This document shows positions 46,616 through 64,000 of a stretch of 64,000 nucleotides of DNA, in pieces (positions within the stretch are counted from its first letter, which is position 1; each line of letters opens with the position of its first letter). Source of the DNA: a virus; IMG/VR virus record IMGVR_UViG_3300032523_001366, positions 4,016 to 68,015 of that record; one strand, written 5' to 3'. A program made the position numbers and the translations under genes. The notes under the pieces were generated by a model that saw only the letters and a program-made list of their open reading frames with translations, had not been told where the DNA came from and made no database searches.

Positions 46616-47113
46616 ATGGCAGTAAATATGATAGGACACCCAGACAAGAGAAGATACAACCCAGGCAGGGATATAGCCTATTGCTGGCCGTGGATTATGC
46701 GCTCAGCCATAGATCGCATTACATCTGGGTCTGGTGAACCGTGGGCGTTAAAGGTTATAGATAAGTACAACATAAGTAATGAAGACCTAGTAAAAGTGGC
46801 CAAGGGTTTGGCCACTTTTATGGCTTTATGCAATGACCCAGAGAAGTGCCCAGACAATCCAAAGGACACAGTAGAAGCAAGTGGTCTATTTGGGTGTAGC
46901 GAAGAGGCTAGATTACTAGTATACTCTGCGGTCGGAGAGACCATGTTGGCTGCTTTCTTTTTAGCTATCAGGGATGTTTTGTTAGAAGACGAACCATCTC
47001 CTCTTAATGATAAAAGGTTTGCAGAACTTATTCAGGCCTCCATGGATAAACTTTGTCTACGGAACGAGTCATTCTTCAGACGTTTTCTGAGGAAGATTAA
47101 GTCCTGGTTCTAA
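46616..47113 (+). CDS. hypothetical protein
   Basis: 165-aa ORF. Confidence 0.65.
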   Translation: MAVNMIGHPDKRRYNPGRDIAYCWPWIMRSAIDRITSGSGEPWALKVIDKYNISNEDLVKVAKGLATFMALCNDPEKCPDNPKDTVEASGLFGCSEEARLLVYSAVGETMLAAFFLAIRDVLLEDEPSPLNDKRFAELIQASMDKLCLRNESFFRRFLRKIKSWF

Positions 47114-50777: not shown

Positions 50778-50805
50778 TAAATTCAGCTAAAAAACGCGTC
50801 ATAAT
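50778..50805 (+). promoter_or_regulatory. cassette promoter motif
   Basis: TAAATT...CGCGTCATAAT; one of six copies. Confidence 0.7.
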
Positions 50806-50851
50806 CATATGTTACGGCTACCCGCCGTCAACTGAAAGGGAGGGTGCAGAT

Positions 50852-51112
50852 ATGGAGATCATTGTTCTCCTATCCCTTGTCATATTTCTTGTCTGGGCGT
50901 GCTCGTCACGCAAAGGCAAGAAGCAGCCAGAAGGCGTAGTGCCCATGAGGCCTTACGTACTTCTGGATGGCCAACTCAGGGAAGTTGTCCATCGGAAAAG
51001 AATGGGTGGATCCGTAGTGTGTACGGTGAAGCCATTGGAGAAGGGCTGCCCTCGGGCCCGAGTAATCGTTCCTGCGGAAGGGAATGATATAACCTGGTTA
51101 CCTAAAAGGTAA
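50852..51112 (+). CDS. small membrane-anchored hypothetical protein
   Basis: GGGAGG SD; hydrophobic N-terminus ending WACSS. Confidence 0.6.
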   Translation: MEIIVLLSLVIFLVWACSSRKGKKQPEGVVPMRPYVLLDGQLREVVHRKRMGGSVVCTVKPLEKGCPRARVIVPAEGNDITWLPKR

Positions 51113-51136
51113 CCTCTTTATGAAGGATATAACACG

Positions 51137-51868
51137 ATGTTATCAGCTAATGGAGTGGTAGGTGGTGGTGTTTCTGGTTTAACCAAAGCGGCCTTAGAGG
51201 CCTTATTTGGTGGCGCTTACGATAGTAACGCCTGGGTCCTATGGCTGCCTGATGACGGGCAGTCGACCACCTTTAAAGGTGGGGACTTATTCACGGAGGA
51301 GAGGGTGATAGCCCTCGTGCGGTACGGAAACAAAAATGTTTCCGTCTGGAAGAGCATTGAAGGTCAAATGACGCCTATGTGCGTCTTTGTCCCCGCTAAG
51401 TGGGGATTTGGCAAGAATAAGAATATCCCAATAGCTTCGGCTTATGCTGAAGGCTTGTTGGGAGTGACGCCCGCCGACGGGTTCCTTGATCACCTAACCC
51501 TCCCAAAGAGGGTGGTAGGGTTTAGGGATGCAGACCTAGAGACGTTTGACGTCTCGGAATGCAATCAGAAGTACCTCTCGTCTCTGGCTAGGTCTAACGA
51601 CCCTGCCAAAATGGAGGCGTCATTTGAGGCCCTCAAGGCGAAGAAAATAGGGGGTATGAGCTTTATCCCCGAGGCGGTCTTACCGGACAGTTATGTTCGA
51701 GGTATAGATCAGCCATCTTTACTAGACTTATCAGGTTTGATCGATCATTTCAGGGAGCCGATTCCCCAAATGGTCTACCAGACTGCCTTAACCAAGCACG
51801 GGCTCGGTTATGGCGCCGCCCTCGGAGGAATCCGTAGGCGGGAGAAGAATACCCGAGGAAGGGCGTAA
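51137..51868 (+). CDS. hypothetical protein
   Basis: 243 aa, AAGGA SD; stop lies in a GTAA tetraloop hairpin. Confidence 0.65.
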   Translation: MLSANGVVGGGVSGLTKAALEALFGGAYDSNAWVLWLPDDGQSTTFKGGDLFTEERVIALVRYGNKNVSVWKSIEGQMTPMCVFVPAKWGFGKNKNIPIASAYAEGLLGVTPADGFLDHLTLPKRVVGFRDADLETFDVSECNQKYLSSLARSNDPAKMEASFEALKAKKIGGMSFIPEAVLPDSYVRGIDQPSLLDLSGLIDHFREPIPQMVYQTALTKHGLGYGAALGGIRRREKNTRGRA

Positions 51869-51869
51869 G

Positions 51870-52170
51870 CCTTTCCTCGGATAGGGCTATGGCGTTCTCT
51901 CCATAGCTTTGCAGGACCTGCGGTAGCGCTTATAATTCCTGATGCCGCTTAGACGGCTAGGGTGTAGTATGCGCTGCAGTAAGAGCTGCCCTTCAATGGG
52001 TAGAGAAGCTTAGGGGCACAAATGGTAACTCCTAAGTAGTATTCCAGGCCCCTGTTCGGCTAACCCTTCAATAAGGTGAACGACAGTCCAATACCGGTGC
52101 TCCCGGTTCTGAAGACTGGTTTGAGCGGGGGGCAGTTTAACTTCGACAGCCTCAGCAATGGGGCTGTCAT
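51870..52170 (+). ncRNA. candidate structured non-coding RNA
   Basis: ~300 nt with no ORF in the track; consecutive stems, e.g. GACAGCCTCA-GCAA-TGGGGCTGTC, CTTAGGGG/CTCCTAAG, CAGTC/GACTG. Confidence 0.45.
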
Positions 52171-52194
52171 TTAACATTAGCCAGGAGGGTAGTT

Positions 52195-52374
52195 ATGTTA
52201 TATGAAGCAGAAGTTATTGGGGAGTGGCGGGTTGATGCCGCTGTCGAAAGACAGTGCGTCCTCGCCGCGTTAAAGAGTGCCGAAAGGCACGGACCCGGAG
52301 ACTTCCGGGTTTTAACAGCTACCTCTGGAGGTAGCGTAGACGTGGTATACGTAAAAGTATACCTAATTAACTAG
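52195..52374 (+). CDS. 59-aa hypothetical protein (not in track)
   Basis: AGGAGG SD; MLYEAEVIGEWRVDAAVERQ...; five hairpins within the CDS. Confidence 0.5.
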   Translation: MLYEAEVIGEWRVDAAVERQCVLAALKSAERHGPGDFRVLTATSGGSVDVVYVKVYLIN

Positions 52375-52382
52375 ACCTAAAC

Positions 52383-52424
52383 CACAGGAGCCTTAAACGG
52401 CTTCTGTGATTTTTTTTTAGCTAT
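52383..52424 (+). terminator. terminator with AGCTAT tail
   Basis: CACAGGAGCC-TTAAAC-GGCTTCTGTG, T9, AGCTAT. Confidence 0.85.
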
Positions 52425-52656
52425 TAGATATCGTTACCTAGGATTACTTCTAGTACTAGAGGGATACCGTATCCCACCAGATATATGGAGGACATAATTA
52501 AAATCACATGATAGTAGGGATTGCCAGTTATGAAGTATCCTATATTATCTGCAATCCATACTATCCGATCTTCTAATCTCATGTTGCTTATTGCTCCAAT
52601 AAACAGTAGAAAGTTATAGTATAAGTTATTGCTTCAATATACTCGAAAGGATAATC

Positions 52657-53424
52657 ATGAACGGATATAACGGTCTAAGGTCTGTAACGGATGGATCAAA
52701 CATAGATCCAAATAGGAAGACAACCAAAATAATCGTAGATCCTCATGAGCTGGACTCATTCACTATAGACATAAGTGCTATGAAGTCGGCAGCTAATCCT
52801 CATGCAGTAAAGTGGCCCGATAAGCAGGCTGATCTTAGGTCCCTCAACGGTGTGGATAGGTCAAAGTTAATATCCGACAATCTTAGAAAGATGTCTAGGG
52901 ACGTAACTCAGGAGTCTCCCCCCAACCTAGGTACAGTGTCCGCTACTATTGATGGGGGTAATCACGCTAACCCGTCTGCAATGTTACCCGGTTCAGCCGT
53001 AACTCCACCGTCTGTAAGGGTTTATTTCGATATGCCAGGGCTGGCTACTCTTAACTCTAAGTATCATGGAGCAGCCTTAGTACCTGGGTACCTTGTCCTC
53101 ACGACGGATATGCGGTATGCAGGCCCAGGCGAGTTTTACCCATTTACTAGTAAGCTAGCTAACGAGTCTTCGGCATACATTGGAGTTATGGTAGAGGGCA
53201 TAGATAGCCTATTTCTCATCAGACCTCCAGCTATTACTCATAAGTTCGGACCTTACGAGCACTGCCTTGTACCTATCAGCCAAGAAAAAGAGCTTCCAGA
53301 AGAGATTAAGAAGAACGTTGATAAGGATAAAGAAGTGGAGGCGTCTCCACAAACAGAGTATGATGATAAAGTTGGTTATGAGGAATATGATAAAAAATCT
53401 AGCGACGATATCGGTGTACTTTAA
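52657..53424 (+). CDS. hypothetical protein
   Basis: 255 aa, AAGGA SD. Confidence 0.7.
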   Translation: MNGYNGLRSVTDGSNIDPNRKTTKIIVDPHELDSFTIDISAMKSAANPHAVKWPDKQADLRSLNGVDRSKLISDNLRKMSRDVTQESPPNLGTVSATIDGGNHANPSAMLPGSAVTPPSVRVYFDMPGLATLNSKYHGAALVPGYLVLTTDMRYAGPGEFYPFTSKLANESSAYIGVMVEGIDSLFLIRPPAITHKFGPYEHCLVPISQEKELPEEIKKNVDKDKEVEASPQTEYDDKVGYEEYDKKSSDDIGVL

Positions 53425-53472
53425 TATAAAGACATAAGATCGGTATCACATAAGCCTTAGGAGACTGGTTTC

Positions 53473-55425
53473 ATGCCCGACTATTCAGAAGGAGCCCTAG
53501 GACGCGGATGGGCACTAAACGGCCGAGGGGATGAACCGTTTCCAGATCCATTTATGGATTATGCCTCTACAGTTATGCCTGAGAATATCAGGGATGGCCT
53601 AAGGTACTGCGAGTTTATCTTTCATTCAAACTCAATGATAAGAGAAGCGGCTAGAAGGGTCTTAAGCTATTTTATCACTGACGTAGAGATAAGAGGCTTA
53701 AACGGTAAAGACTTAGGCGATGACGAGCGCCAGAAGTATGTATCATTCCTGGCTGAGACTCTAGACATAAAGACCATCCTGCACTCAGTAGGCCTAGACT
53801 TTCTCTGCTACGGCAATAGCTTTACCACTCTAGTAGTTCCCTTTAGAAGGTATCTCTACTGCCCTAAGTGCGGCCTTGATGTTCCACTAAAGAACATGAT
53901 TAATAATCCTAGCTTTGCATTCAAGTGGTCCATGCCTGAGTTTCAGGCTGTTTGCCCTAAATGTAAGTTCACTGGTAACTGGAAGCGAGTAGATAGGCGC
54001 ACTAACGAACCAGAAGAGGTGCGTATTAGGCGCTGGCCAGCCGTAGAAATGGAAATAAGACATGACCCAGTAAGGGATAACCGAGATTACCTGTGGCGTA
54101 TACCAGAAGACTATAGGCTTCAAGTACGCAGAGGTGACCCCCAAATCCTAGAGACTGTACCATGGGAGATAGTCGAGGCTGTGGCCGCTAATGGGTTTCT
54201 TCTATTCGACAAGAAGGCTGTACATCATATGTATGAGCCTACTCTATCTGGAGTAAGGTCTAGAGGTTGGGGCATCTCTAGAACCCTAGTTAACTTTAGG
54301 CACGCTTGGTATGTGCAGGTGCTTCATCGATACAACGAGGCTATCGCGCTAGACTACGTTATTCCGTTCAGGGTACTAACTCCAGAGCCACAGTCTAGCT
54401 CAATGCCAGAAGCCGGTGATCCACTTATGAACATGGATCTAGGCGGCCTCAGAGGCCAAGTCCAAGCCATGCTCAGAAAGCGAAGAAGAGATCCGGCATC
54501 ATGGAACTTCCTTAGCACTCCTATTAAGTACCAGATGCTTGGCGGAGAGGCTAGAAACTTAGCGCCTACAGATCTGCTAGAGGCAGGTATAACTAACTTA
54601 CTTAACGGCTTTGGTATGCCAGCTGAACTATACAGAGGCACCCTTAGTCTTCAGGCTGCTCTTCCAGCTATTAGACTCTTTGAGTCCAGCTGGCAGTACC
54701 TTGTTCACTGCCTTAATAGCTTCCTAGCTGAGACCATAAAGTCAGTAGGGGACGCATTTGGCTGGGAGCCAGCTACTTGCAGACTTATCAAGCCCTCTAT
54801 GCTTGACGATGTTCAGCTTATCATGTCCAAGATGCAGCTTATGCAGGCCCAGCAGGTCAGCCAGACTGGCGTGCTTAGAAGTATGGGTATGGACTTCAAA
54901 GAAGAGCAAAGGCAGATTCTCGACGAGCAAAGATTTGTTCAAGAGGAGCAAGCCAAGCTTCAGAAGAGTATGGAAGACTCTTCTATTATGGAGCAAATGG
55001 CTCCATCTGTAACTGGGCAGTTCATGCAGTCTATGCAGCAGGGAGGACAGCCTCCTCAACCAGGCGGAGCCCCTGCACCGCAAGGAGCTCAGCCACCTCC
55101 GGGACCTGCTCAGAGCGCACCTCAAGGCCAAGGAGCCCCTCCCCCTCAGGGAGCTGCAGGTATGGCCGCCCAAGGTCTGTCGCTATCTACTCCTACTGGG
55201 CCTAACCAGAAGGTAACTCCTCAGGACATGCAGGCAAAGGCACAGGCATTAGCGGATCAACTGCTAGCTATGCCTGAGTCTCAAAGACAGTCTGAGATGA
55301 CTAAGCTTAAATCCCAAGATCCGATTATTCATAGCTTGGTTAAACAGACCATAGGTAACATTAGACAGCAGGCCCAGACACAGGGAGCTAGAATGATGCT
55401 ACAACAACAATACGGCGTACAGTAG
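53473..55425 (+). CDS. probable portal protein with CPKC...CPKC insertion and Q/P-rich tail
   Basis: 650 aa; size and low-complexity tail fit large-phage portals; no diagnostic motif, so function is inferred. Confidence 0.5.
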   Translation: MPDYSEGALGRGWALNGRGDEPFPDPFMDYASTVMPENIRDGLRYCEFIFHSNSMIREAARRVLSYFITDVEIRGLNGKDLGDDERQKYVSFLAETLDIKTILHSVGLDFLCYGNSFTTLVVPFRRYLYCPKCGLDVPLKNMINNPSFAFKWSMPEFQAVCPKCKFTGNWKRVDRRTNEPEEVRIRRWPAVEMEIRHDPVRDNRDYLWRIPEDYRLQVRRGDPQILETVPWEIVEAVAANGFLLFDKKAVHHMYEPTLSGVRSRGWGISRTLVNFRHAWYVQVLHRYNEAIALDYVIPFRVLTPEPQSSSMPEAGDPLMNMDLGGLRGQVQAMLRKRRRDPASWNFLSTPIKYQMLGGEARNLAPTDLLEAGITNLLNGFGMPAELYRGTLSLQAALPAIRLFESSWQYLVHCLNSFLAETIKSVGDAFGWEPATCRLIKPSMLDDVQLIMSKMQLMQAQQVSQTGVLRSMGMDFKEEQRQILDEQRFVQEEQAKLQKSMEDSSIMEQMAPSVTGQFMQSMQQGGQPPQPGGAPAPQGAQPPPGPAQSAPQGQGAPPPQGAAGMAAQGLSLSTPTGPNQKVTPQDMQAKAQALADQLLAMPESQRQSEMTKLKSQDPIIHSLVKQTIGNIRQQAQTQGARMMLQQQYGVQ

Positions 55426-55431
55426 AAGGCT

Positions 55432-55968
55432 ATGGAACTTATTATGAGCACTATAAGCAATTTCTTTAAAATGATTATGGACAGCGGTCCGGCCACGGAT
55501 CACCCCGAGGACGCAGCCATGCTTACTAGCGATGAAGTTACAGAACTTCTTACCTTGAATAACAAGACAAGAAACGTATATAACCTTCCACCTTTAGCGG
55601 TAGATGATGACTGCTCCTTGGTTGCTAGGTCTCATGCTATATGGATGTCAAACTCTCAAAATGTATCCCACATGGGATTCAGCTTCTTTGGCCCTGTTCA
55701 GCGTATGGCTATAGTAGGTAAGGAGCCGGAGAGCATAGGCGAGTGCATCTCTTACTCTATAGGGTCTGATGTAAAGGACTTGATGAAGGCCTGGTTCCTG
55801 TCTGAAAGTCATAGAGTTATTATACTAGGTAAGTACGATAGATTCGGCGTGGGCAGAGTACTAGGCCCTCATGATGGTAATTACTATTGGTGCGCCATAT
55901 ACAGCACCTGTAAGGGTGCTCGCAATGCCCCTATTGTAAAGATGTCAGACAGCATAGTGGATCTTTAG
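55432..55968 (+). CDS. CAP/SCP domain protein
   Basis: NKTR...LPPL...ARSHAIWM...SH...GECI...WFLSESHR...YWC. Confidence 0.8.
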   Translation: MELIMSTISNFFKMIMDSGPATDHPEDAAMLTSDEVTELLTLNNKTRNVYNLPPLAVDDDCSLVARSHAIWMSNSQNVSHMGFSFFGPVQRMAIVGKEPESIGECISYSIGSDVKDLMKAWFLSESHRVIILGKYDRFGVGRVLGPHDGNYYWCAIYSTCKGARNAPIVKMSDSIVDL

Positions 55969-55979
55969 AAAGACACATC

Positions 55980-56585
55980 ATGTCTAAAGCAAATATGACC
56001 CCATTCTTCGAGTGGTTCAAGACCTTATCATCTACAAAGCCCTGGTTGGTCGTAGGTAAAGGCCCAAGCTTTAGTAAGGTAAGCAGTATAAATCTTGAAG
56101 ACTACTTAGTAGTAGGTCTAAACCATGTTATGTTTAAAATACCGTGCCTTTTAGGGCATGCTATAGATTATGAGGTTTACAATAAGTCGGATAATAAGTT
56201 TCTTTGCCAACATTTAGTAACTCCATGGGAGCCGCACATAGGCTTTAAGCCAGGAAACAAGAGCTTAGTAGATTTGGATGCCGCTAACAGAATAGGGCAC
56301 AAAGATGTACTATACTACAACAGCAGCAGGACAAGAAAAGTAAGCATGAGGCGCGGAGGCCCAGAGGTAAGGGTTAGACTATTCGGGGCGGTGGCTGTAA
56401 TGAACTTACTAGCCATGGCTGGTGTCAGACTAGTTAATACCCTAGGCATTGACGGCGGTACCAGTTATCATGATGAGTTTAACAAGAGGGATCTTCTCTG
56501 TAATGGAAGGTCATCATTTAATGACCAATTTTCAGAGTTTAATTTCACGAAGAAGAAGTATGGATTAGTTATAAGACCTATGTAA
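55980..56585 (+). CDS. DUF115/Maf-like sugar-transfer protein
   Basis: VVGKGPS, VGLN, LGID motifs. Confidence 0.55.
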   Translation: MSKANMTPFFEWFKTLSSTKPWLVVGKGPSFSKVSSINLEDYLVVGLNHVMFKIPCLLGHAIDYEVYNKSDNKFLCQHLVTPWEPHIGFKPGNKSLVDLDAANRIGHKDVLYYNSSRTRKVSMRRGGPEVRVRLFGAVAVMNLLAMAGVRLVNTLGIDGGTSYHDEFNKRDLLCNGRSSFNDQFSEFNFTKKKYGLVIRPM

Positions 56586-56650
56586 TTAAAATAAACATCG
56601 CTATTTGTTTATAAATCAGTTACTATGCCTCGTTAATATTGGAGAATACT

Positions 56651-57403
56651 ATGCCGAAGGGACCTATAAAGATTTTTGTTGGTACTGAACTTAAAACCAA
56701 GATAGCCTTGGACGTGCTTTCCCATTCCATTAAAAGAAATACTAGCAGCAATGTTGTTATAATTCCTATGATGGGTCCAGAATGGGAAGTACCAAAAGGC
56801 CTTCATCAGGGCACAGGGTTTAGCCTTAGAAGATTCATGATACCTCATTTTTGCAACTATGAAGGACACGCTATCTACCTTGACGCTGATCAGCTAGTCT
56901 TCGGGGACATATCCGAGCTCTGGGGATATGCAGACAGCCTTAAAGATGAGGCAGTAGCCTGTACTTACCAACCCGATAAGTTCAATAAGCAGCCATGGCC
57001 TCAAAGCTCTGTAATGGTTATAGATTGTGCTAAAGTTGGTTGGAACCCCGTAGACATGTGGGACACACTTAGAAGGGGATATAAGTATAGCGACTTCATG
57101 CACTTAACGTTTAGGCCTAATCTCCCGCTTAAGATACCTAATTTCTGGAATAGCCTTAATGTCTATGAGGACGCAACTACTAGGCTTCTACATTACACCA
57201 AAGAGCCCGAGCAGCCTTGGTATAAGCCAGGGCATCCCTTATCCCATTTCTGGGAAGCGGAGCTTGCAAAGGCAATAGCAGCTAAAGCAGTATCAAAATC
57301 TGACTTCCAATTTGCTTTAGACCTTTGGCATAAACCTAAGTTGGATAAGAGGTTAAGCCAAGGCCTTAATCCGTACTACAAGACTTATCTAGGAAAGTTC
57401 TAA
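56651..57403 (+). CDS. GT8-like glycosyltransferase
   Basis: TGFSLRRFMIP, AIYLDADQL, SSVM, WNSL, LLHYT...QPW. Confidence 0.8.
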   Translation: MPKGPIKIFVGTELKTKIALDVLSHSIKRNTSSNVVIIPMMGPEWEVPKGLHQGTGFSLRRFMIPHFCNYEGHAIYLDADQLVFGDISELWGYADSLKDEAVACTYQPDKFNKQPWPQSSVMVIDCAKVGWNPVDMWDTLRRGYKYSDFMHLTFRPNLPLKIPNFWNSLNVYEDATTRLLHYTKEPEQPWYKPGHPLSHFWEAELAKAIAAKAVSKSDFQFALDLWHKPKLDKRLSQGLNPYYKTYLGKF

Positions 57404-58116
57404 TGCGTATAGATAAGCTATACAACATTCATAGAGACTGTGACATATATATAGTCGGCACTGGCCCAACGGCTAGAGTTCTTCCAAAGGATATGTTTGT
57501 AGACAGAATCACCATAGGGCTTAACCAAGCCTACAAGAGCTTTAATGTTAGTTACTCTATAACAGTTCACCCTGAGCTGGAGATGGAACATAGCGTGCTC
57601 ATTAAATCTAACCCCAGGCTAAAGACTAGATGGGTAGTAAAGCATAAGTCACCAACCCGACTGCCATTTGACGATCCTGAACGGTATGTGTTTAATACTA
57701 GCCCCGAGTGGTCTAGCTTTTTAGGTAAAGACAAAGAAACCCTATTCATAGGCAGGGGTGTGCAGCAGACAGCTATAGACCTGGCTTGTAGAATGGGGGC
57801 TAGAGCTATATTTCTAGTAGGGGTTGACATGTCAGACGTTGGAGGAGATCATCACTCTCACAAGCAGCACGTAAGGTTTCATGGCCTTGCGCCGAAAGAC
57901 GTGTATGGTGAATATAGGGAATGGACTTATAAAGCTAGAAAACTGGCTAGAGAAAAGGCAAGAATTCCTGTATTATCTATTTCACCTCTCTTAGGGTGTG
58001 GTGGGTCTATACATGATGCTGATTACATTCAGTTAAGAGATGAGTTTGGGCTGGCTCCGTTGCCTGCTCCAAAAGACACCTCTGGGTATACCAGAGATAG
58101 CATAGATAAACCTTAG
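57403..58116 (+). CDS. DUF115/Maf-like sugar-transfer protein
   Basis: IYIVGTGPT, IGLN, MGARAIFLVGVD. Confidence 0.6.
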   Translation: MRIDKLYNIHRDCDIYIVGTGPTARVLPKDMFVDRITIGLNQAYKSFNVSYSITVHPELEMEHSVLIKSNPRLKTRWVVKHKSPTRLPFDDPERYVFNTSPEWSSFLGKDKETLFIGRGVQQTAIDLACRMGARAIFLVGVDMSDVGGDHHSHKQHVRFHGLAPKDVYGEYREWTYKARKLAREKARIPVLSISPLLGCGGSIHDADYIQLRDEFGLAPLPAPKDTSGYTRDSIDKP

Positions 58117-58130
58117 TTAGGAGCATTACG

Positions 58131-59366
58131 ATGCCAAGCAGATACGACAACCTTAATGCGGCTGTAACCGCTACAGTAAAGGATAGCAAGAATAACAAGC
58201 CTTACCGCATCGTAGAGATCGGTGTACATCATGCTGTCAGAGCTGTAATGATGGTAAAGCTTGCTAAGAAGCTAGGAAGAACGAACATAGAGTACTATGG
58301 CTTTGACCTATTTGAAGACATGACTCCAAATGTTAACTCCATTGAGTTCGGAAAGCCAGCTTTGGCTATGAGCCGAGATGCCGCTAGAAAGCTAATACTT
58401 GCAGCGGGCGCAGCCAAGGTTCAGTTAATAAAAGGCGATACTAAGCTCTCCATGCCTCAAGCTGTTAAAGATATTCCTACTGCTAACGTTGTATTCCTTG
58501 ATGGCGGGCACACACTTGAAACTATAGCAAGTGATCTTGAGAATATTCTTAATTGCTGCAGCTCCAACACCCACATTCTTTTAGACGATTACTACCCTGG
58601 CGTGTATGACAAAGGATGTGCTTTTATTTCCAAATGCTTTACTATGCTAAAGGAACATGGAATAAAGATAGAAGATCTTAATCCTGTAGATGTTGTTGGG
58701 GACAATAAATTAAGCATAAGGATGCTGTCTCTTAGATGCGCTGCCCAGCTGACACCTTCTACCCTCTTAGGCTTTGGAGCTAAGCTACTCAACGAAGCTT
58801 GCCCTACCGCTGAGCCAGAGCCACAAGAGTTTATTCCTCAGGCTACATTTATTGATGACTCGCCTGTAGATACCTCCATTACTTGGCCTGAGTGTAACTT
58901 GGCTAATGTAGAAAAAGCCTTTCAAGAACACGTAAGTAAGCAAGCTAAGACGGAGGTGGTCAGCCCAGTGGCTGACATTACGTTTCCCCCCGCTGATAGC
59001 GGTTGTGATACCGACGTACAACCAGTTCGAGTACGCAAAAATAGCTGTGGAAAGCTGCCTGAAGAACACTGCGAATTGCCTAGTGATTCTTGTGGACGAC
59101 GGGAGTCCTCAATGGAACCTTGCGGATTGGGAGAAGTACCCGAAGAGCCAGCTGCTGCTGCATCGGTTTCCGAAGAACAACAAGAACCTAACCAGATCGT
59201 GGAACCAGGGAATCCTCTTGGCCTTGGAACACCGTGCCAAAGTAATAGTGGCGGGGAACTCCGACCTGAAGTTTCCCCCGAATTGGAGCAAGGGAATAGT
59301 AGAGGCTCTAGAAGAAGGCGCAGGCGTAGTGGGCCCTCTGACGAACGCTCCGGGCCACAGAGCTAA
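58131..59366 (+). CDS. class I SAM-dependent methyltransferase (sequence after ~58990 probably out of frame)
   Basis: IVEIGV, YYGFDLFE, LIKGDT, FLDGGH, LLDDY. Confidence 0.8.
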   Translation: MPSRYDNLNAAVTATVKDSKNNKPYRIVEIGVHHAVRAVMMVKLAKKLGRTNIEYYGFDLFEDMTPNVNSIEFGKPALAMSRDAARKLILAAGAAKVQLIKGDTKLSMPQAVKDIPTANVVFLDGGHTLETIASDLENILNCCSSNTHILLDDYYPGVYDKGCAFISKCFTMLKEHGIKIEDLNPVDVVGDNKLSIRMLSLRCAAQLTPSTLLGFGAKLLNEACPTAEPEPQEFIPQATFIDDSPVDTSITWPECNLANVEKAFQEHVSKQAKTEVVSPVADITFPPADSGCDTDVQPVRVRKNSCGKLPEEHCELPSDSCGRRESSMEPCGLGEVPEEPAAAASVSEEQQEPNQIVEPGNPLGLGTPCQSNSGGELRPEVSPELEQGNSRGSRRRRRRSGPSDERSGPQS

Positions 59367-59727
59367 GCAGCAAGTACTCAAGTATGTAAAAGGATATACT
59401 GTTAGCGATTCTGACCTGAAGCTCGCCCAGGTGTCTGCCCGCCTATTAAAGGAAAGGGCAGGCACCACGGAGTCTGGCCCTCTTAATGGGTTCTGCTTGG
59501 CTGCTCTAGCTAAGACGTGGATCACAGGTGCCCATAGCCTAGGAAATAACCAGTTCTTTAATCCCAAATTCAAGATGATCCGTAATGAGGACGAGTTGAT
59601 GGGAAGATGGAAGAAGCTAGGCCTATCAAGTCGTATAGCCCTGTCTAGCTTCGTCTTTCATTATAGGGGAGTAACGAGAAACCCCTCAGGAAGGAAAGCC
59701 GGCACAGGTAATCTAAGGATTAAGTAA
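59005..59727 (+). CDS. GT2 glycosyltransferase, +1 frame relative to the methyltransferase
   Basis: (LIAVV)IPTYN, VILVDDGS, SWNQG, NSD, VFHY. Confidence 0.8.
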   Translation: MIPTYNQFEYAKIAVESCLKNTANCLVILVDDGSPQWNLADWEKYPKSQLLLHRFPKNNKNLTRSWNQGILLALEHRAKVIVAGNSDLKFPPNWSKGIVEALEEGAGVVGPLTNAPGHRAKQQVLKYVKGYTVSDSDLKLAQVSARLLKERAGTTESGPLNGFCLAALAKTWITGAHSLGNNQFFNPKFKMIRNEDELMGRWKKLGLSSRIALSSFVFHYRGVTRNPSGRKAGTGNLRIK

Positions 59728-60347
59728 TGAGGTACTGGAAAGCCAAGAGCATTACACCTGGGTCTAAAGTATGCATATCTGTAGTTACGTATAATCAAAC
59801 TAACTGCTTATCATCTCTCATACATGCCCTTAGAGCCCAAACATTTAAAGACTTCAAAGCATATATATTACATGATGGCCCTTGGTCTAATGAAGCCTCC
59901 ACCCATTACTTAAACGCAGTAGGCAGTGACCATAGATTCGTTAAGTTAAATAGTCCTACAAGAGAGGCTAAGTTCGGGCATCACCTTAGACAGGTAGGGT
60001 TTGATATGGGCACGGCTGACAAGTGCAACTGGCTATGCACTATGAACGCTGATTGCTGGTATGCTCCCGTTTATTTAGAGTGGATGCTAGGCTCAGCCCA
60101 TGAAAATAAATCCAACTTTATTTACTGTAACATGGTTCACAGCCACAAGTTATGGAAACCGATGAAGTCGGACCTCAAGAGAGGAGCTATAGACGCAGGC
60201 AACTGGATAGCTCATACTAGCCTTGTGGGCGATACTAAGTGGAATAGCAATAGCTTTTCAGCTGACTGGGAGTATGTTAATAAACTTAAAAATAAACCTG
60301 ACTTTAAGCCCTCTAAAGTTGATGGTTATATATTTACACACAACTGA
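59727..60347 (+). CDS. GT2-like glycosyltransferase
   Basis: ISVVTYN, ILHDG, MNAD, ADWE. Confidence 0.75.
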   Translation: MRYWKAKSITPGSKVCISVVTYNQTNCLSSLIHALRAQTFKDFKAYILHDGPWSNEASTHYLNAVGSDHRFVKLNSPTREAKFGHHLRQVGFDMGTADKCNWLCTMNADCWYAPVYLEWMLGSAHENKSNFIYCNMVHSHKLWKPMKSDLKRGAIDAGNWIAHTSLVGDTKWNSNSFSADWEYVNKLKNKPDFKPSKVDGYIFTHN

Positions 60348-60349
60348 AC

Positions 60350-61390
60350 ATGAAGATAGGCTTTGATGTACAGTATAAACCTCATGATGCCGTGTATGCG
60401 GCGTTAAGGTTGTCTGATTCGTTTAGGTTCTTAGGCTACGATACAACTCTATTCAGCAGTAAGGCCCCTAACCATATCTATGGGTGCAATTGGGATAACC
60501 TAGTAGTAACTCCTAATGACATGCCTTATGATAAGTGGTTAAAGGGGCTCAGCCATGTAGTGTGGCCAGTTCCTCCTAGTAAGGATGTAGTGCAAAGGGT
60601 TGGCAAATCAATAGTTACGATAGCTCTAGCTCCATGGGATTGTCTTCCTGGGTACATAAAGGGATCACTTAAGTTTTGTGCCCATGTAGTAACTCCTTGC
60701 TTAGAGAACTCAGCCATTGTTCGTAAAGAGTCTAATATTAGAGACGTCTCCACAATTGAATGGGACAGCTCTATACCTATGACTAGAAAGGACATAGGAG
60801 ACACAGATGCTTCAAGACCTAAGGTTCTAATACCACTTCACTCCAGCCAGGGGCTTAGATGTGACTTGGAGTCTTTATTTCAGATAATCTCCGGAGTTCA
60901 AGACAAGTGCCCTCAAGCCGATATAACTGTTTCATATAGCTCTAAAGGATCTCCATGGGAAGTGAAGAGAGCCCTAGCTAGGTATGTAAAAGGCAATCGA
61001 AACATAAAAATCGTCATAGACGAAACCACTTGTACTAGCTCCCTTCTTCTATATGGGCATAGCGATATAGTATTGTGGCCAGCAGAGATAGAGGGGTTTG
61101 GCTTAGTAGGAATAGAGTCTATATACATGGGAACACCAGTAGTGGCCTATGATATACCACCGATGTCAAATATAATTACAAATGGCGTTAACGGTATGTT
61201 GGTTTCGTGTGACTCGGGAGGCTCTAAGGGCGGAGTAATGTATGCTGAGCCTAATCCTTCTGAGTTTATAACTGTAGCAGCGAATGCCATAAACGAAAGA
61301 ATACTGGATCTTAATAAGAACACCAAAGTAGGCAGAAGATCAGTTAGAAGCATGTTTTACTCACAATGGAAGAAGATCATAGAGGGCTAA
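60350..61390 (+). CDS. GT4 (GT-B) glycosyltransferase
   Basis: EGFGLVGIESIYMGTPVVAYD EX7E motif; NGVNGMLV. Confidence 0.85.
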   Translation: MKIGFDVQYKPHDAVYAALRLSDSFRFLGYDTTLFSSKAPNHIYGCNWDNLVVTPNDMPYDKWLKGLSHVVWPVPPSKDVVQRVGKSIVTIALAPWDCLPGYIKGSLKFCAHVVTPCLENSAIVRKESNIRDVSTIEWDSSIPMTRKDIGDTDASRPKVLIPLHSSQGLRCDLESLFQIISGVQDKCPQADITVSYSSKGSPWEVKRALARYVKGNRNIKIVIDETTCTSSLLLYGHSDIVLWPAEIEGFGLVGIESIYMGTPVVAYDIPPMSNIITNGVNGMLVSCDSGGSKGGVMYAEPNPSEFITVAANAINERILDLNKNTKVGRRSVRSMFYSQWKKIIEG

Positions 61391-61393
61391 CTC

Positions 61394-61759
61394 ATGGACG
61401 TACTAGCTGTAAGACAAGAAGAGAAGCTATGGGGCCGCAACCATATCATTCATTTGGACAACTCCTTTCAGATATGCCACATACATATTCTCAAAGGCGG
61501 ATACTGCTCTAATCACTTTCACCAGCATAAGTGGAATCAATTCTATATAGTCTCAGGCAAGCTAATGATCAGCTGCTACAACTCAGATGGCACTATAAAG
61601 AGCAGCATCATGCTTAGACCTACCGAGTGCATTAAGATACCGCCTGGCTTGCACCATAAGTTTGAAGCTATAGAAGAGACTGAAGCTTTGGAGATCTATT
61701 GGTCTGAGCTATCTGAGCACGACATTGTGCGTACAGACATAGGCGGCATCAAGGCTTAA
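61394..61759 (+). CDS. cupin-fold protein (sugar isomerase-like)
   Basis: KLWG, SNHFHQHK, IPPGLHHKF. Confidence 0.75.
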   Translation: MDVLAVRQEEKLWGRNHIIHLDNSFQICHIHILKGGYCSNHFHQHKWNQFYIVSGKLMISCYNSDGTIKSSIMLRPTECIKIPPGLHHKFEAIEETEALEIYWSELSEHDIVRTDIGGIKA

Positions 61760-61783
61760 TTCAACCCATAAGTGCGTCATAAT
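61756..61783 (+). promoter_or_regulatory. cassette B promoter motif
   Basis: TTAATT...GCGTCATAAT. Confidence 0.7.
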
Positions 61784-61791
61784 AGTATGGA

Positions 61792-61873
61792 AGGATAGGT
61801 TTATCAGTCATCTAACAGGTGACGCCTAATCCTGTACGGGCAGGTATGCCCACTTTTACGAAAGGAAAATACC
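61792..61873 (+). promoter_or_regulatory. conserved structured 5' leader (copy 1)
   Basis: AGGATAGGT..GTCATCT-AAC-AGGTGAC-GCCTAATCCT plus GGGCA-GGTA-TGCCC. Confidence 0.65.
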
Positions 61874-62122
61874 ATGACCCAGAACGAATTCCACCCACAC
61901 ATGGCTAGAATGGCGGCAGCTCTCGAGCAAGCGAAGGCCCTAGACTTGGAGCAGCTTCACGAAGAAGCTGCCCAGGTCTTAAGGGCCTCGTTCTCAAAGA
62001 GCGGGCCCTGGATAGGAGGGGAGGTGCCAGAAGGCTACCTCGACCTTGTCGGTAAAATCATTCAGGAGGAACAACGCCAGCTTCGCCGTCACGCATTGCT
62101 TCGCTCTTACCTAGATTTCTAG
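61874..62122 (+). CDS. hypothetical protein (cassette B)
   Basis: 82 aa, AAGGA SD. Confidence 0.65.
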   Translation: MTQNEFHPHMARMAAALEQAKALDLEQLHEEAAQVLRASFSKSGPWIGGEVPEGYLDLVGKIIQEEQRQLRRHALLRSYLDF

Positions 62123-62131
62123 GTAAGGGCC

Positions 62132-62176
62132 AATCACATATGGGCTATGCCTAATATGTGATTTTTTTTTAGCTAT
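62132..62176 (+). terminator. terminator with AGCTAT tail
   Basis: AATCACATAT...ATATGTGATT stem, T9, AGCTAT. Confidence 0.8.
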
Positions 62177-62187
62177 TATACGCCCCC

Positions 62188-62215
62188 TTAATTCAGAGCA
62201 TAATCGTGTCATAAT
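62188..62215 (+). promoter_or_regulatory. cassette C promoter motif
   Basis: TTAATT...GTGTCATAAT (one mismatch to consensus). Confidence 0.65.
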
Positions 62216-62220
62216 ATAGT

Positions 62221-62726
62221 GATACCGCTTAGGTATTAAGAATGAAGGCCTTCAGCCCTGCCGATCTGACACGGCCGCTTGGAGGGATTCGACTTAATAC
62301 CTAGGTTACTCTGGTGTTCTATGGCAAGTGCCTATAGAACGGTCAGTAGGATATTAAGCCACACACCTAAGGCCCCACGGCCTAAGAACAGTGGGCGGTA
62401 ACCAACCGTAGGTAAGTGGGCGTGGATGAAAGTTCCACAAACGTCCAGTAACTACGGACGTAACACTAGCGGCACCTTAGTGAGGTGCGCGTCCTGAGTA
62501 GGACTATAAACTGCTTAGAGAACGCCACACTCTTAAAATATGTGGGACACCCGGTGAGAGCCGGGGAATAGGGTGGAAACCCCTTCTTCTTCTTTTAAGG
62601 TAACCCGCCTACCATAAATGGGGTATGGATGAAACTTCCATATATCTTCCTATACCCACGGGAGATATTCCTCGCACCTGGAGGGAGGGTGCCGTCCTGA
62701 GCAGGACGTTAAGCTGCTCTTTTTTT
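62221..62726 (+). ncRNA. ~500-nt structured non-coding RNA (cassette C)
   Basis: Own promoter motif and T-tract, no ORF in the track, 13-bp stem 62228-62240/62293-62305, two homologous domains with compensatory changes. Confidence 0.7.
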
Positions 62727-62741
62727 AGCTATCACTCCTCC

Positions 62742-62769
62742 TTAACCCGGCCTATAAGCGCGTCATAAT
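62742..62769 (+). promoter_or_regulatory. cassette D promoter motif
   Basis: TTAACC...GCGTCATAAT. Confidence 0.7.
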
Positions 62770-62777
62770 AGTATGAA

Positions 62778-62818
62778 AGGATAGGTTATCAGTCATCTAG
62801 CCGATGGCACCTAATCCT
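62778..62818 (+). promoter_or_regulatory. conserved structured 5' leader (copy 2)
   Basis: AGGATAGGT-TATCA-GTCATC-TAGCC-GATGGC-ACCTAATCCT. Confidence 0.65.
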
Positions 62819-62838
62819 CATTTAACACGGAGGTTACC

Positions 62839-63051
62839 ATGATAAACCCATCAACCCCTCTGGGGTTCGCCTGGATAGCCAGGCTCCGCCGAGGCGGAAA
62901 CCTGTTTGTCCTGACGGCAGGGCATAGCAACCGTAAGAAGGCTCACATAGCCCTTGTGGATGCTGCCAAAAGTATTGAGGGGGTTACCAATGACCGGTTA
63001 ACCGCCCTTATAGACAAGGGCTTGCTTAGCCTTGTCTATGTTGATTTATAA
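62839..63051 (+). CDS. hypothetical protein (cassette D)
   Basis: 70 aa, GGAGGT SD. Confidence 0.65.
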   Translation: MINPSTPLGFAWIARLRRGGNLFVLTAGHSNRKKAHIALVDAAKSIEGVTNDRLTALIDKGLLSLVYVDL

Positions 63052-63055
63052 AAGC

Positions 63056-63096
63056 ACACACCATGCCTTCGGGTATGGTGTGTTTTTTTTAGCTAT
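63056..63096 (+). terminator. terminator with AGCTAT tail
   Basis: ACACACCATGCC-TTCG-GGTATGGTGTGT, T-tract, AGCTAT. Confidence 0.85.
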
Positions 63097-63145
63097 CACA
63101 CATCCTATCTCATTATGTTAATTGAGCTTATAAACGCGTCATAAT
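63084..63145 (+). repeat. 62-bp terminator/promoter junction repeat (copy 1)
   Basis: Matches 63379-63440 with 3 mismatches. Confidence 0.9.
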
Positions 63146-63149
63146 GAGT

Positions 63150-63238
63150 TGTAAGGAGTAGTCTTTAGTCATCTATAGTGGATGGCACCTATTCCTACAT
63201 GGGCAGGTATGCCCCTTTTTTGACGAAAGGAAAATACC
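63150..63238 (+). promoter_or_regulatory. conserved structured 5' leader (copy 3)
   Basis: GTCATCTA-TAG-TGGATGGC-ACCTATTCCT; GGGCAGGTATGCCC and ACGAAAGGAAAATACCATG identical to copy 1. Confidence 0.65.
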
Positions 63239-63286
63239 ATGGCAGTAGGAAAAGGCGGAAGAAAAGGCGGAGGGGGAGGTTGTTGA
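63239..63286 (+). CDS. 15-aa peptide MAVGKGGRKGGGGGC (cassette E)
   Basis: Same SD/ATG context as the 82-aa gene at 61874. Confidence 0.55.
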   Translation: MAVGKGGRKGGGGGC

Positions 63287-63351
63287 CTCCTTTCCAGAGG
63301 CACTCACACTTGCAGTTGCAGGTGTGGGTGCGCCGGTGGGGTCTAACCATC

Positions 63352-63391
63352 CGTCCTGAGCAGGACGTTAAACTGCTCTTTTTTTAGCTAT
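63352..63391 (+). terminator. pseudoknot, T-tract, AGCTAT cassette end
   Basis: CGTCC-TGAGCA-GGACG-TTAAAC-TGCTC, T7, AGCTAT. Confidence 0.65.
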
Positions 63392-63440
63392 CACACATCC
63401 TATCTCATTACGTTAATTGGACTTATAAACGCGTCATAAT
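63379..63440 (+). repeat. 62-bp terminator/promoter junction repeat (copy 2)
   Basis: Matches 63084-63145; ends in GCGTCATAAT. Confidence 0.9.
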
Positions 63441-63516
63441 CTATTGGTTACCCGTACCTGTAAAAACGGGGGCTGGTCAGAGAGCTATTCTTTGACGATG
63501 TTAAGCGGGAGATAGG

Positions 63517-64000
63517 ATGTTTACTCTAGTTAGAGTTAAAGGAAGTTTTATAGAGGCCTCCACTGGCCATACCGTAAATGTCTCGGAGTTTGCTATCTCA
63601 CCAAAGGTCACTGTAAAGATGTGGTATATGTTCGGAATGAACAGAACTGTATCTGGACAGTGGTGGTCTTCTCAGACTATCCCTTGGAACGCAAACCATG
63701 ACGACCCTATAACCAGCGTGTCTTGGTACGACTGCCAAGAATTCATTAGCAGGCTAAACAAGAGTAGGCCAGGTAAGTCAGCTTTTAGGCTACCGACTCA
63801 GGCTGAGGTTGAACTTGCCAGTGCAAAAAATGTGTTGGAGGAGGCCCCGACACTGGGCGCTAGAGGCGAGTGGTGTCAAGATTATAGCTATGACGGGTAC
63901 TATAGATACTGCTACAGCTGCTGGAACGGTAAGAGCTGGTCTTACCAAAATAGTTTAAACTTCACTGGAGGTATACTAGGTTTAGAGAGCTTTGAGTTAA
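63517..64000 (+). CDS. FGE-sulfatase (C-type lectin-fold) domain protein, runs off the window
   Basis: My translation: PITSVSWYDCQEFISRLN...FRLPTQAEVE...EWCQD; GGGAG SD; missing from the track because no stop lies in the window. Confidence 0.75.
   Translation, partial: MFTLVRVKGSFIEASTGHTVNVSEFAISPKVTVKMWYMFGMNRTVSGQWWSSQTIPWNANHDDPITSVSWYDCQEFISRLNKSRPGKSAFRLPTQAEVELASAKNVLEEAPTLGARGEWCQDYSYDGYYRYCYSCWNGKSWSYQNSLNFTGGILGLESFEL

Follow-up and report, generated by a model that had tools for sequence, protein, structure and literature searches.

What organises a row of short, mutually unrelated genes and RNAs in a phage, and how does such a row change between relatives? The question is raised by the 3′ end of IMGVR_UViG_3300032523_001366 (G000), a 68,015-bp viral contig in IMG/VR, of which we analysed positions 4016–68015 (64,000 nucleotides, hereafter the window; coordinates without a genome label refer to it). 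An initial annotation had described here five consecutive expression cassettes with invariant boundary motifs, and had proposed that the AGCTAT sequence closing them is either a recombination core or a sequence-specific termination or processing signal. Here we find that related phages differ by gain, loss, reordering and recombination of the units, with breakpoints in shared regulatory modules, and that AGCTAT follows diverse terminator hairpins well beyond the array. With modest confidence, we read the locus as a hypervariable island of autonomous transcription units, each predicted to run from a promoter to a boxed intrinsic terminator and to be exchanged by homologous recombination, in which the AGCTAT box would form part of a two-part stop.

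G000 is 33% complete (CheckV) and carries the array at its 3′ end, with unit 5 cut because the window stops at the contig end. Sequencing runs containing the stretch are labelled freshwater or lake metagenomes. Three related records were taken in full, G001 (190 kb, 92% complete), G002 (102 kb) and G003 (101 kb), and four-genome counts refer to G000–G003. Seven related loci (L002–L007 etc.) were gathered through the cupin protein that flanks the array (92–96% amino acid identity). Motif significance was assessed by comparison with 100 shuffles of the sequence.

Layout of the array

The array features, all on the + strand, are listed below (ORF, open reading frame; SD, Shine-Dalgarno sequence; nt, nucleotides).

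61394–61759, + strand: cupin-fold gene, 121 amino acids, conserved left flank (Pfam Polysacc_synt_C and Cupin_2)
61756–61789, + strand: promoter 1, TTAATT-N12-GCGTCATAAT-N4-TG (pattern scan, alignment)
61790–62122, + strand: unit 1 payload, leader and 82-amino-acid ORFan (61874–62122) with an SD
62134–62179, + strand: terminator 1, hairpin 62134–62161 (−15.2 kcal/mol), T9 62162–62170, box AGCTATTAT 62171–62179
62188–62221, + strand: promoter 2, TTAATT-N12-GTGTCATAAT-N4-TG (pattern scan, alignment)
62222–62698, + strand: unit 2 payload, non-coding RNA containing a ~130-nt module twice, no SD-led ORF
62699–62735, + strand: terminator 2, hairpin GAGCAG...CTGCTC 62699–62719, T7 62720–62726, box AGCTATCAC 62727–62735
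62742–62775, + strand: promoter 3, TTAACC-N12-GCGTCATAAT-N4-TG (pattern scan, alignment)
62776–63051, + strand: unit 3 payload, common leader and 70-amino-acid ORFan (62839–63051) with an SD
63056–63099, + strand: terminator 3, 12-bp hairpin 63056–63083, T8, box AGCTATCAC 63091–63099
63118–63151, + strand: promoter 4, within the junction repeat copy 63084–63145 (pattern scan)
63152–63357, + strand: unit 4 payload, common leader, 15-codon ORF (63235–63282) and ~100 nt of unique sequence
63358–63394, + strand: terminator 4, T7 63379–63385, box AGCTATCAC 63386–63394, module identical with terminator 2
63413–63446, + strand: promoter 5, within the second junction repeat copy 63379–63440 (pattern scan)
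63517–64000, + strand: unit 5 payload, FGE-sulfatase-domain gene truncated at the contig end (PF03781, E 5e-9)

The five promoters and four boxed terminators recur as exact pattern matches where they had initially been placed, far above chance. The junctions at 63084–63145 and 63379–63440 are copies of one 62-bp repeat that differ at 3 positions, as first described. Examination of ORFs and of Pfam, Rfam and PHROG matches bears out that the payloads (82-residue ORF, non-coding RNA, 70-residue ORF, 15-residue peptide and FGE-sulfatase gene) are unrelated. The TAA stop codon of the cupin gene sits inside the −35 element of promoter 1.

A box behind diverse terminator hairpins

In the window, T7 followed by AGCTAT (at most one mismatch) matches 6 times against 0.23 expected (0 of 100 shuffles). 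The four array copies of AGCTAT start at 62171, 62727, 63091 and 63386 and are preceded by T9, T7, T8 and T7, respectively, and by hairpins of −10.8 to −17.3 kcal/mol. Over all of G000, the + strand has 7 copies of T5+AGCTAT and the − strand has none. Every one of the 29 boxed terminators of the four genomes retains AGCTAT, and their hairpins (−8 to −21 kcal/mol) fall into 22 clusters. Conservation extends to positions +7 (C in 21, T in 8), +8 (A in 28) and +9 (G in 21), past which the sequence is unconstrained, giving an extended box AGCTAT-Y-A-(G). By sequence, these elements fit the definition of intrinsic terminators, with a hairpin and then T5–9 (T7 or T8 in 22 of the 29), and the conserved box past the T-run lies outside that definition. 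A limited literature search for the motif strings found no description of an AGCTAT box after a T-run.

On the G001 coding strand, the box stands on 9 of 24 strong hairpin and T-run elements and on 1 of 149 weak ones, and on the other strand on 0 of 25 strong ones. A hairpin precedes each of the 10 T4+AGCTAT sites on the coding strand, and in 9 cases it is a strong one. Because not every strong terminator has the box, two terminator classes exist, and the boxed class accompanies the cassette promoter class. Without a T-run, AGCTATYA shows neither strand bias nor enrichment in G001 (25 copies on the + strand versus 29 on the − strand). The box belongs to the terminator, not to the downstream sequence.

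What follows the box varies. A cassette promoter comes next in 12 of the 29 four-genome cases, at 9–11 or 21–22 nt, and the other 17 boxed terminators are isolated, with no promoter after them; these precede an SD and start codon, or unrelated sequence. The two spacing classes, measured from the end of AGCTAT to the TTAA of the −35 element, lie about one helical turn apart; the T-run may serve as an UP-like element, or the classes may merely reflect few junction families. A conserved boxed copy at G001rc 116068, with counterparts in G002, G003 and other loci, adjoins the stop codon of a convergent minus-strand gene for a class II-like ribonucleotide reductase (ATP-cone, E 1.5e-12).

The module of terminator 2 is found again in unit 4 and in relatives. 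This commonest terminator module (62691–62726 and 63350–63385; also in L002, L004 and L007) allows two mutually exclusive hairpins, CGTCCTGAGCAGGACG or GAGCAG-N9-CTGCTC with T7, and the non-coding RNA contains a degenerate copy that lacks the T-run, at ~62486–62520. At G001rc 6931–7030, a 91-nt promoter-to-terminator unit stands before a 62-kb replication block. The unit begins with bases that include TATAGCTATAGCTATCA, in which the box sequence and its complement stand one after the other.

Distribution of the box and promoter in the clade

IMG/VR was scanned for T7AGCTATYAG (at least 120 stretches, many of them multi-site; 116 distinct sites and 118 loci evaluated) and, as a control, for the scrambled T7AGTCATYAG (118 stretches, every one single-site; 88 distinct sites evaluated), hairpins of −8 kcal/mol or stronger being counted as strong. 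Among the matches listed, to which all counts of this paragraph refer, a strong hairpin precedes 78 of the 116 sites versus 3 of the 88 control sites. The 78 hairpin-linked sites form 67 hairpin clusters from loci of 32–60% GC, and in 56 of the 67 clusters no common downstream element is seen. A homologue of a G001 protein is encoded in 86 of 118 test loci versus 10 of 118 control loci, and other strong terminators are followed by AGCTAT in 12 of 78 cases in test loci versus 0 of 47 in control loci. Matches to the relaxed promoter YTWAAT-N12-16-...CATAWY come from 23 of the 118 loci; 36 share the strand of the terminator and one is on the other strand.

Protein identity to relatives that keep the box is 25–65%. 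High-GC relatives carry a promoter of the form GCTAAATAA...CGGTCATATT-N4-TG; as promoter and box are present in these relatives too, both signals are conserved over deep divergence. On these comparisons, the box is a clade-wide part of the predicted stop signal. The box as a general feature of host terminators was considered and rejected: five hit-containing bacterial genomes have 1–6 copies of T6AGCTAT per 3.8–6.6 Mb versus 0–4 copies of the reversed control.

The cassette promoters

The pattern TTAAYY-N12-GYGTCATAAT occurs exactly at 61756, 62188, 62742, 63118 and 63413 (cores at 61774, 62206, 62760, 63136 and 63431) and with one mismatch at 50778. All six window copies lie on the + strand; 0.01 are expected, and 0 of 100 shuffles gave 6. 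All 7 copies of the GYGTCATAAT core in G000 lie on the + strand. Alignment of the promoters extends the consensus to CTTAATTC-N10-GYGTCATAAT-N4-TG, with N4-TG kept in all 27 credible promoters of the four genomes. The −10 element CATAAT shares 5 of 6 positions with the sigma-70 consensus, at a spacer of 16 nt, and the −35 element (TTAATT or CTAAAT) shares about 3 of 6, being unlike TTGACA. One of the five array promoters passes a generic sigma-70 scan (9 of 12 consensus positions) and four fail. Invariant bases beyond the sigma-70 elements lie upstream (GYGT) and downstream (N4-TG) of the −10 element. The geometry TAAA/TTAA-N14-GCGTCATAA resembles that of sigma-28/sigma-D promoters (TAAA-N15-GCCGATAA/T), which offers a possible lead.

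Among 28 strict promoter cores in the four genomes, one runs off its contig, leaving 27 evaluable; 25 of these have a T4+AGCTAT terminator downstream, no more than 2 kb away and ahead of any further promoter, defining units of 91–1614 nt. One of the two unpaired cores is probably a chance match, because it lacks both the −35 element and N4-TG. Variant promoters (GGGTCATAAT, GCGGCATAAT) stand upstream of two of four orphan terminators. Promoters and boxed terminators alternate along all four genomes, so that whole-genome scans for both motifs reveal a grammar that is genome-wide and not specific to the array.

Among G001 intergenic 7-mers, the search for a third promoter class yielded only SD, promoter and terminator/box sequences. 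TAAATAG/TATTTAA and TAGTAYT were dropped as extra promoter motifs, showing neither enrichment nor consistent position, and all that a strand-asymmetric 8-mer screen of the clade loci brought up was coding bias and the motif used for selection. A perfect 16-bp palindrome, GTGGAGACGTCTCCAC, adjoins the −35 element of three cassette promoters in a relative (sites at L002 ~10441–10456; upstream of G001rc promoters 81025, 83150 and 83680; and at 87886), and a loose end behind position 63100 in the DNA run X5, from another study, starts with it. From its position, the palindrome could be an operator.

A hypervariable island among relatives

The interval between the cupin gene and the conserved 112-amino-acid membrane-protein gene that forms the right flank holds 5 units in L002, 3 in L005, 3 in L007, 2–3 in L006 and at least 5 in the window. 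In 4 of 8 contigs, the window counted, the contig ends inside the array, as is expected of repeats or microdiversity. On the left, homology between relatives stops at the cupin stop codon (inside the −35 element) or just past the −10 element (positions 367–398 of the region); on the right, it restarts exactly at the last T-run/AGCTAT, where the four hairpins are unrelated. About 16 payload families occur in 7 phages in varying order: the FGE gene is in unit 5 in the window and unit 3 in L002, and the non-coding RNA in unit 2 in the window and L007 and unit 1 in L005 and L006. Promoter and leader modules, payloads and terminator modules combine independently; the unit 3 terminator, for example, is shared with a 105-amino-acid family in L002, L003 and L005. 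Between L002 and L003 the difference is exactly one unit, which has promoter repeats at its borders. Breakpoints fall in the promoter, leader, terminator hairpin and T-run/box.

Contigs from DNA run X5 link 62216 with 62776 and 61800 with 62789; both joints are deletions, exact to the cassette, at promoter/leader repeats. Others lead from 63100 back to 62183 and from 63398 back to 61755; the X5 joints count as weak, because one side is only 30–34 nt of a repeated module, and the back-joints fit circles and other cassette orders alike. Comparison of related phages shows that units come and go, change places and recombine, with breakpoints in shared regulatory modules. The modular cassette system initially proposed is upheld by these comparisons: number, order and content of units differ among close relatives, and homology breaks at the junctions and other regulatory modules. 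In L002 and L003, ~87 extra nt between the cupin stop and promoter 1 (10367–10453) contain four tandem TGTCCTAY/CGTCCTAC repeats.

The phage and its transcription apparatus

Two genes of the window bear directly on how the units might be read and exchanged.

23609–24346, + strand: sigma-70-family factor, 245 amino acids (Sigma70_r4 above cut-off, E 3e-7; r2 weak)
40670–41848, + strand: UvsX-like recombinase (PHROG 97, E 2.6e-14)

The sigma factor also has an NCBIfam sigma-70 superfamily match over residues 13–218, below cut-off, and is a candidate reader of the cassette promoters. It gives weak FliA/WhiG-type matches, and its G001 counterpart has 238 amino acids. The UvsX-like protein is a candidate enzyme for homology-driven cassette exchange. 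The window further encodes helicases, a DnaB-like helicase and a DNA polymerase whose best match is to family A (~22% identity to cultured phages).

In G001, a 1485-amino-acid protein (L015:3408-7865, − strand) joins the beta subunit of RNA polymerase to the N-terminal portion of beta′ (Rpb2_6, E 2e-49; Rpb1_2, E 3e-21; GADFDGD), and a separate 639-amino-acid protein (L014:17691-19610, − strand) carries the beta′ C-terminal part (beta′ domain 5). T4-like phages have a family B polymerase and are not known to encode such a multisubunit RNA polymerase. Judged by its predicted genes, the phage is not T4-like. The nearest cultured relatives of the fused polymerase are in Salmonella phage Arash (31.5% identity), termed an 'orphan phage' in the title of its paper, and in some Vibrio phages. 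No blastn match to cultured phages was found for the array.

Neither tyrosine recombinase (PF00589) nor serine recombinase/resolvase (PF00239) was found in G000–G003, one of which is 92% complete; positive controls for this search were detected in 14 of 14 and 12 of 14 genomes. The search for a T7-like polymerase (PF00940) gave no match and is uninformative, its positive controls also being undetected.

Payloads, leaders and other features of the window

The 82- and 70-residue ORFs match no Pfam or PHROG family. Rfam returned nothing at gathering thresholds for the whole window; CssrA (18.8 bits, cut-off 93) and EGFOA-assoc-1 (14.7 bits, cut-off 224.5) were rejected as sub-threshold hits at E up to 5. 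In L002 the FGE gene is complete (265 amino acids) and forms a stand-alone unit with its own promoter and boxed terminator; the unit 5 payload shares 79% nucleotide identity with L002_11614. A diversity-generating retroelement was considered for the FGE payload, and the reverse transcriptase PF00078 was not found in G000–G003.

Homologues of the non-coding RNA occur only in the arrays of L005, L006 and L007, with varying module number. On a shallow alignment of 7 module copies from four close relatives, Alifold predicts 19 base pairs, of which 5 show compensatory change. Hairpins of the module include GCGGUAACCARCCG and UGGAUGAAASUUCCA. RNA-library evidence consists of assembled contigs, from which transcript ends, strand and level are not readable. 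Two such contigs (539 and 527 nt, from studies of 2025 and 2017) cover 62236/62247–62676/62678 of the non-coding RNA and reach the highest RNA-library depths seen on the stretch; unit 3 is covered at 62785–62982 in two runs. No inference attaches to the parts of the stretch that have no RNA contigs (the upstream glycosyltransferase genes and units 1 and 4). An adapter-like loose end at 62247, in a single contig of one run, may hint at a frequent fragment end.

The unit 1 leader, common to units 3 and 4 and L005_11359, contains a stem-loop followed by a GGGCAGGTATGCCC hairpin (61837–61850) before the SD. The 5′ stem-loop is conserved (AGTCATC...GATGGC/GTGAC), and in units 1 and 4 the GGGCAGGTATGCCC hairpin and a T-rich run stand just before the SD and ATG; the unit 4 leader has a terminator-like hairpin at 63201–63214 with T6. 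By its layout, the GGGCAGGTATGCCC hairpin looks like an attenuator or riboswitch expression platform within the unit.

Outside the array, the window contains the following elements of the same kind.

50778–52427, + strand: isolated unit of the same grammar, with ORFs of 86, 243 and 59 amino acids
50778–50811, + strand: promoter of the isolated unit, with −35 variant TAAATT
52410–52427, + strand: terminator of the isolated unit, T9 52410–52418, box AGCTATTAG 52419–52427
16–29, + strand: boxed terminator T5+AGCTATCAG, closing a 421-nt unit
46958–46971, + strand: orphan T5+AGCTATCAG with a weak hairpin, no recognisable promoter upstream

The promoter of the 421-nt unit lies just upstream of the window, at G000 position 3610. 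The orphan at 46958 is uncertain because it lies within a listed ORF. By crude gene calling, 79 of 90 genes of the window are on the + strand, and no tRNA or tmRNA was found in it. The block upstream of the array (52657–61759) contains glycosyltransferase, methyltransferase (Methyltransf_24) and cupin genes, which suggests sugar or surface modification.

Comparison with known systems

The closest likeness is to the PeSLs of T4-type phages, intergenic composites of a stable stem-loop, serving as terminator or attenuator, and an early promoter, with an SD and the next gene's start behind them (Arbiol et al., 2010, PMC2839356; Comeau et al., 2014, PMC4122927). In the accessible parts of these papers, PeSLs are described as crowding hyperplastic, ORFan-rich regions and mediating modular shuffling; their motifs are lineage-specific, with recombination between repeats as the proposed driver (PMC2839356, PMC4122927). 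According to the same parts, the PeSL promoter is at or near the host sigma-70 consensus TTGACA-N17-TATAAT (variants include TTTACW...TAYWAT), and recombination between nearby elements gives mini-circles. The present array similarly has a composite of stem-loop/terminator and promoter, 9–22 nt apart, at 4 of 4 complete array junctions and 12 of 29 boxed terminators; it lies in a hyperplastic location with ORFans, and close relatives show indels, replacements and displacements at the elements. It differs in that the phage is not T4-like (family A polymerase, own sigma factor, a relative's multisubunit RNA polymerase), the promoter may not be near-consensus sigma-70, and, 9–22 nt upstream of the −35 element, the stem-loop forms a complete intrinsic terminator together with a long T-run. 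Moreover, the array has an invariant AGCTATYA box, which the accessible parts of the PeSL papers do not describe, and its boxed terminator class also closes isolated units.

Morons of lambdoid phages (Juhala/Hendrix) are genes with their own promoter and factor-independent terminator inserted between two genes. The array units are likewise self-sufficient, carry accessory cargo and lie between genes that are adjacent or differently spaced in relatives. In contrast to morons, they stand in tandem, share one conserved promoter/terminator grammar and include a non-coding RNA payload (possibly more), with no prophage context evident for the array phage. On these comparisons, the cassette reading is of a known kind, PeSL- or moron-like, in a new phage clade.

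Integron cassettes are mostly promoterless and rely on an integrase of the tyrosine recombinase type and on attC sites, which contain an inverse-core and a core site. The array resembles them in its tandem, unrelated small payloads, its conserved boundaries with imperfect hairpins and its variation between close relatives. It differs from them in that no integrase was found in G000–G003 and in having a promoter for each cassette, T-run terminator hairpins and breakpoints over several modules, which sets it outside the integrons. The class II signal (ATCTGTT) of T7 RNA polymerase is a sequence-specific termination signal. The box resembles it as a short conserved sequence beside a U-run, tied to a predicted stop, in a phage with its own transcription apparatus, but is placed past the U-run and comes with a canonical hairpin.

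Proposed working and alternative explanations

In the working that we propose, each unit would consist of a clade-specific two-part promoter, a short structured leader, a payload (ORFan, small RNA or accessory enzyme) and a boxed intrinsic terminator, with transcription starting at the promoter and stopping at the terminator. The boxed terminator would close transcription from cassette promoters and insulate neighbouring units and gene blocks, with the box as the sequence-specific half of the stop signal. The repeated regulatory modules would supply the homology for exchange by homologous recombination, possibly with the UvsX-like recombinase. The reader of box and promoter would be phage-encoded, either the sigma factor or the multisubunit RNA polymerase or both, since the signals are clade-specific, the −35 element is unlike TTGACA with one of five promoters passing the sigma-70 scan, and the clade has both sigma factor and polymerase. 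Because promoter and box are conserved across 32–60% GC, the phage apparatus is a likelier reader than host RNA polymerase alone.

Several points weigh against this working. Promoter and terminator activity is predicted from sequence motifs alone, and the RNA-library contigs break at repeated modules and cannot show transcript ends. Among the matches listed, there is no strong hairpin at 38 of 116 IMG/VR sites and no G001 homologue in 32 of 118 loci. Strong hairpins precede 27 of 120 bacterial or archaeal sites, a count that is uninterpretable without a control pattern, and copies of T5AGCTAT in cultured phages with a fused polymerase number 1 in Arash and 0 in Vibrio D69. The box, the core of which (TAGCTA) is a palindrome, may act through host RNA polymerase, in an RNA-level read-through role or through a DNA-binding protein. 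If the promoters need the phage sigma factor, the units would not be 'early', unlike PeSLs. Several boxed terminators directly precede an SD and start codon with no promoter between, a layout also compatible with regulation or attenuation at the terminator, or with a restart site.

We regard it as possible, though only tentatively, that promoter and box form a private start and stop code of the phage transcription machine, in which release would need AGCTATYAG past the U-tract and the island would be a plug-and-play array. If so, a captured DNA or RNA gene between the signals would be expressed at once and would move between co-infecting phages by recombination at the signals, and the terminator would be of a new two-part kind.

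It seems unlikely that the box marks conditional terminators, closing immediate-early units until a later phage antiterminator permits read-through into long blocks, as in lambda-like logic. At least one such unit does precede each long co-directional block, including the 91-nt G001 unit that fronts the 62-kb replication block, unboxed strong terminators elsewhere mean that two classes could be handled differently, and the leaders of units 1 and 4 have an extra terminator-like hairpin before the SD. However, no antiterminator was identified, the copy beside the convergent gene has nothing downstream to read into, and read-through within the array would only enter the next self-sufficient unit.

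A restart role, in which the T-run and AGCTATYAG would be a minimal phage-polymerase promoter or an RNA-processing site giving defined 5′ ends, appears decidedly unlikely. Long gene blocks begin right after boxed terminators and have none within (7.0–69.9, 70.9–81.0 and 84.2–114.1 kb in G001), in several phages an SD and start codon lie 3–20 nt past the box, and the clade has its own polymerase. Yet the copy at G001rc 116068 runs into the 3′ end of the convergent ribonucleotide reductase gene, so that a promoter there would yield only antisense RNA. The G001 sites also speak against restart, since T4+AGCTAT always follows a hairpin on the coding strand and AGCTATYA without T-run and hairpin is neither strand-biased nor enriched, as do the mixed downstream contexts, with no common element in most of the hairpin clusters among the matches listed.

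That the units are ordinary host sigma-70 early promoters and intrinsic terminators, with the box a passive relic of one ancestral junction that was copied, is in our view very unlikely. The −10 element and 16-nt spacer agree with it, junctions have plainly been copied (the 62-bp window repeat, repeated junction families in G001), and T4-type PeSLs are explained likewise in the accessible parts of PMC2839356 and PMC4122927. Against a relic, the hairpins have diverged to 22 clusters in four genomes and, among the matches listed, 67 clade-wide with six box positions invariant, while the sequence past +9 is unconstrained. The box also persists at 25–65% protein identity and 32–60% GC, the scrambled control has few hairpins (3 of 88), and the −35 elements are unlike TTGACA, with four of the five array promoters failing the sigma-70 scan.

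Least probable of all is a site-specific, integron-like system with AGCTAT as the crossover core, whose cassettes would be cut out as circles and go in at the box: it is compatible with the island's right edge at T-run/AGCTAT in four relatives with unrelated hairpins, and with the X5 joints from 63100 to 62183 and from 63398 to 61755, which place box-proximal sequence before an earlier promoter, but these joints may be other cassette orders in related strains, promoters, leaders and terminator hairpins also contain breakpoints, no promoter comes after 17 of the 29 boxed terminators, distant relatives keep the box at ordinary gene ends, including a convergent one, and the idea is unlikely because no integrase or resolvase was found in the four records although the controls were detected.

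Of the roles first suggested for AGCTAT, the tie to termination is thus retained, the box following diverse hairpins and T-runs genome-wide and clade-wide, and the junction-specific recombination core is not. We return to the island of autonomous, homologously exchanged units. As far as motif statistics and comparative sequence reach, its AGCTAT box is a real, strongly non-random, clade-wide signal linked to predicted terminators, and not an array-specific recombination core.

Implications

The array extends PeSL-type evolution of mobile regulatory cassettes beyond T4-like phages to a large uncultured clade of ~190-kb lake phages with a sigma factor and RNA polymerase of their own, and provides clean natural cases of payload exchange, including that of a non-coding RNA found in RNA libraries. 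The two motifs can serve as annotation marks that delimit transcription units, flag accessory and possibly anti-host genes and identify members of the clade in metagenomes. Textbook intrinsic terminators have no sequence-specific part past the U-tract; given this, a six- to nine-base box that is invariant after dozens of unrelated hairpins is a concrete lead. The box may point to a new mechanism of termination, insulation or processing, and to the factor that reads it.

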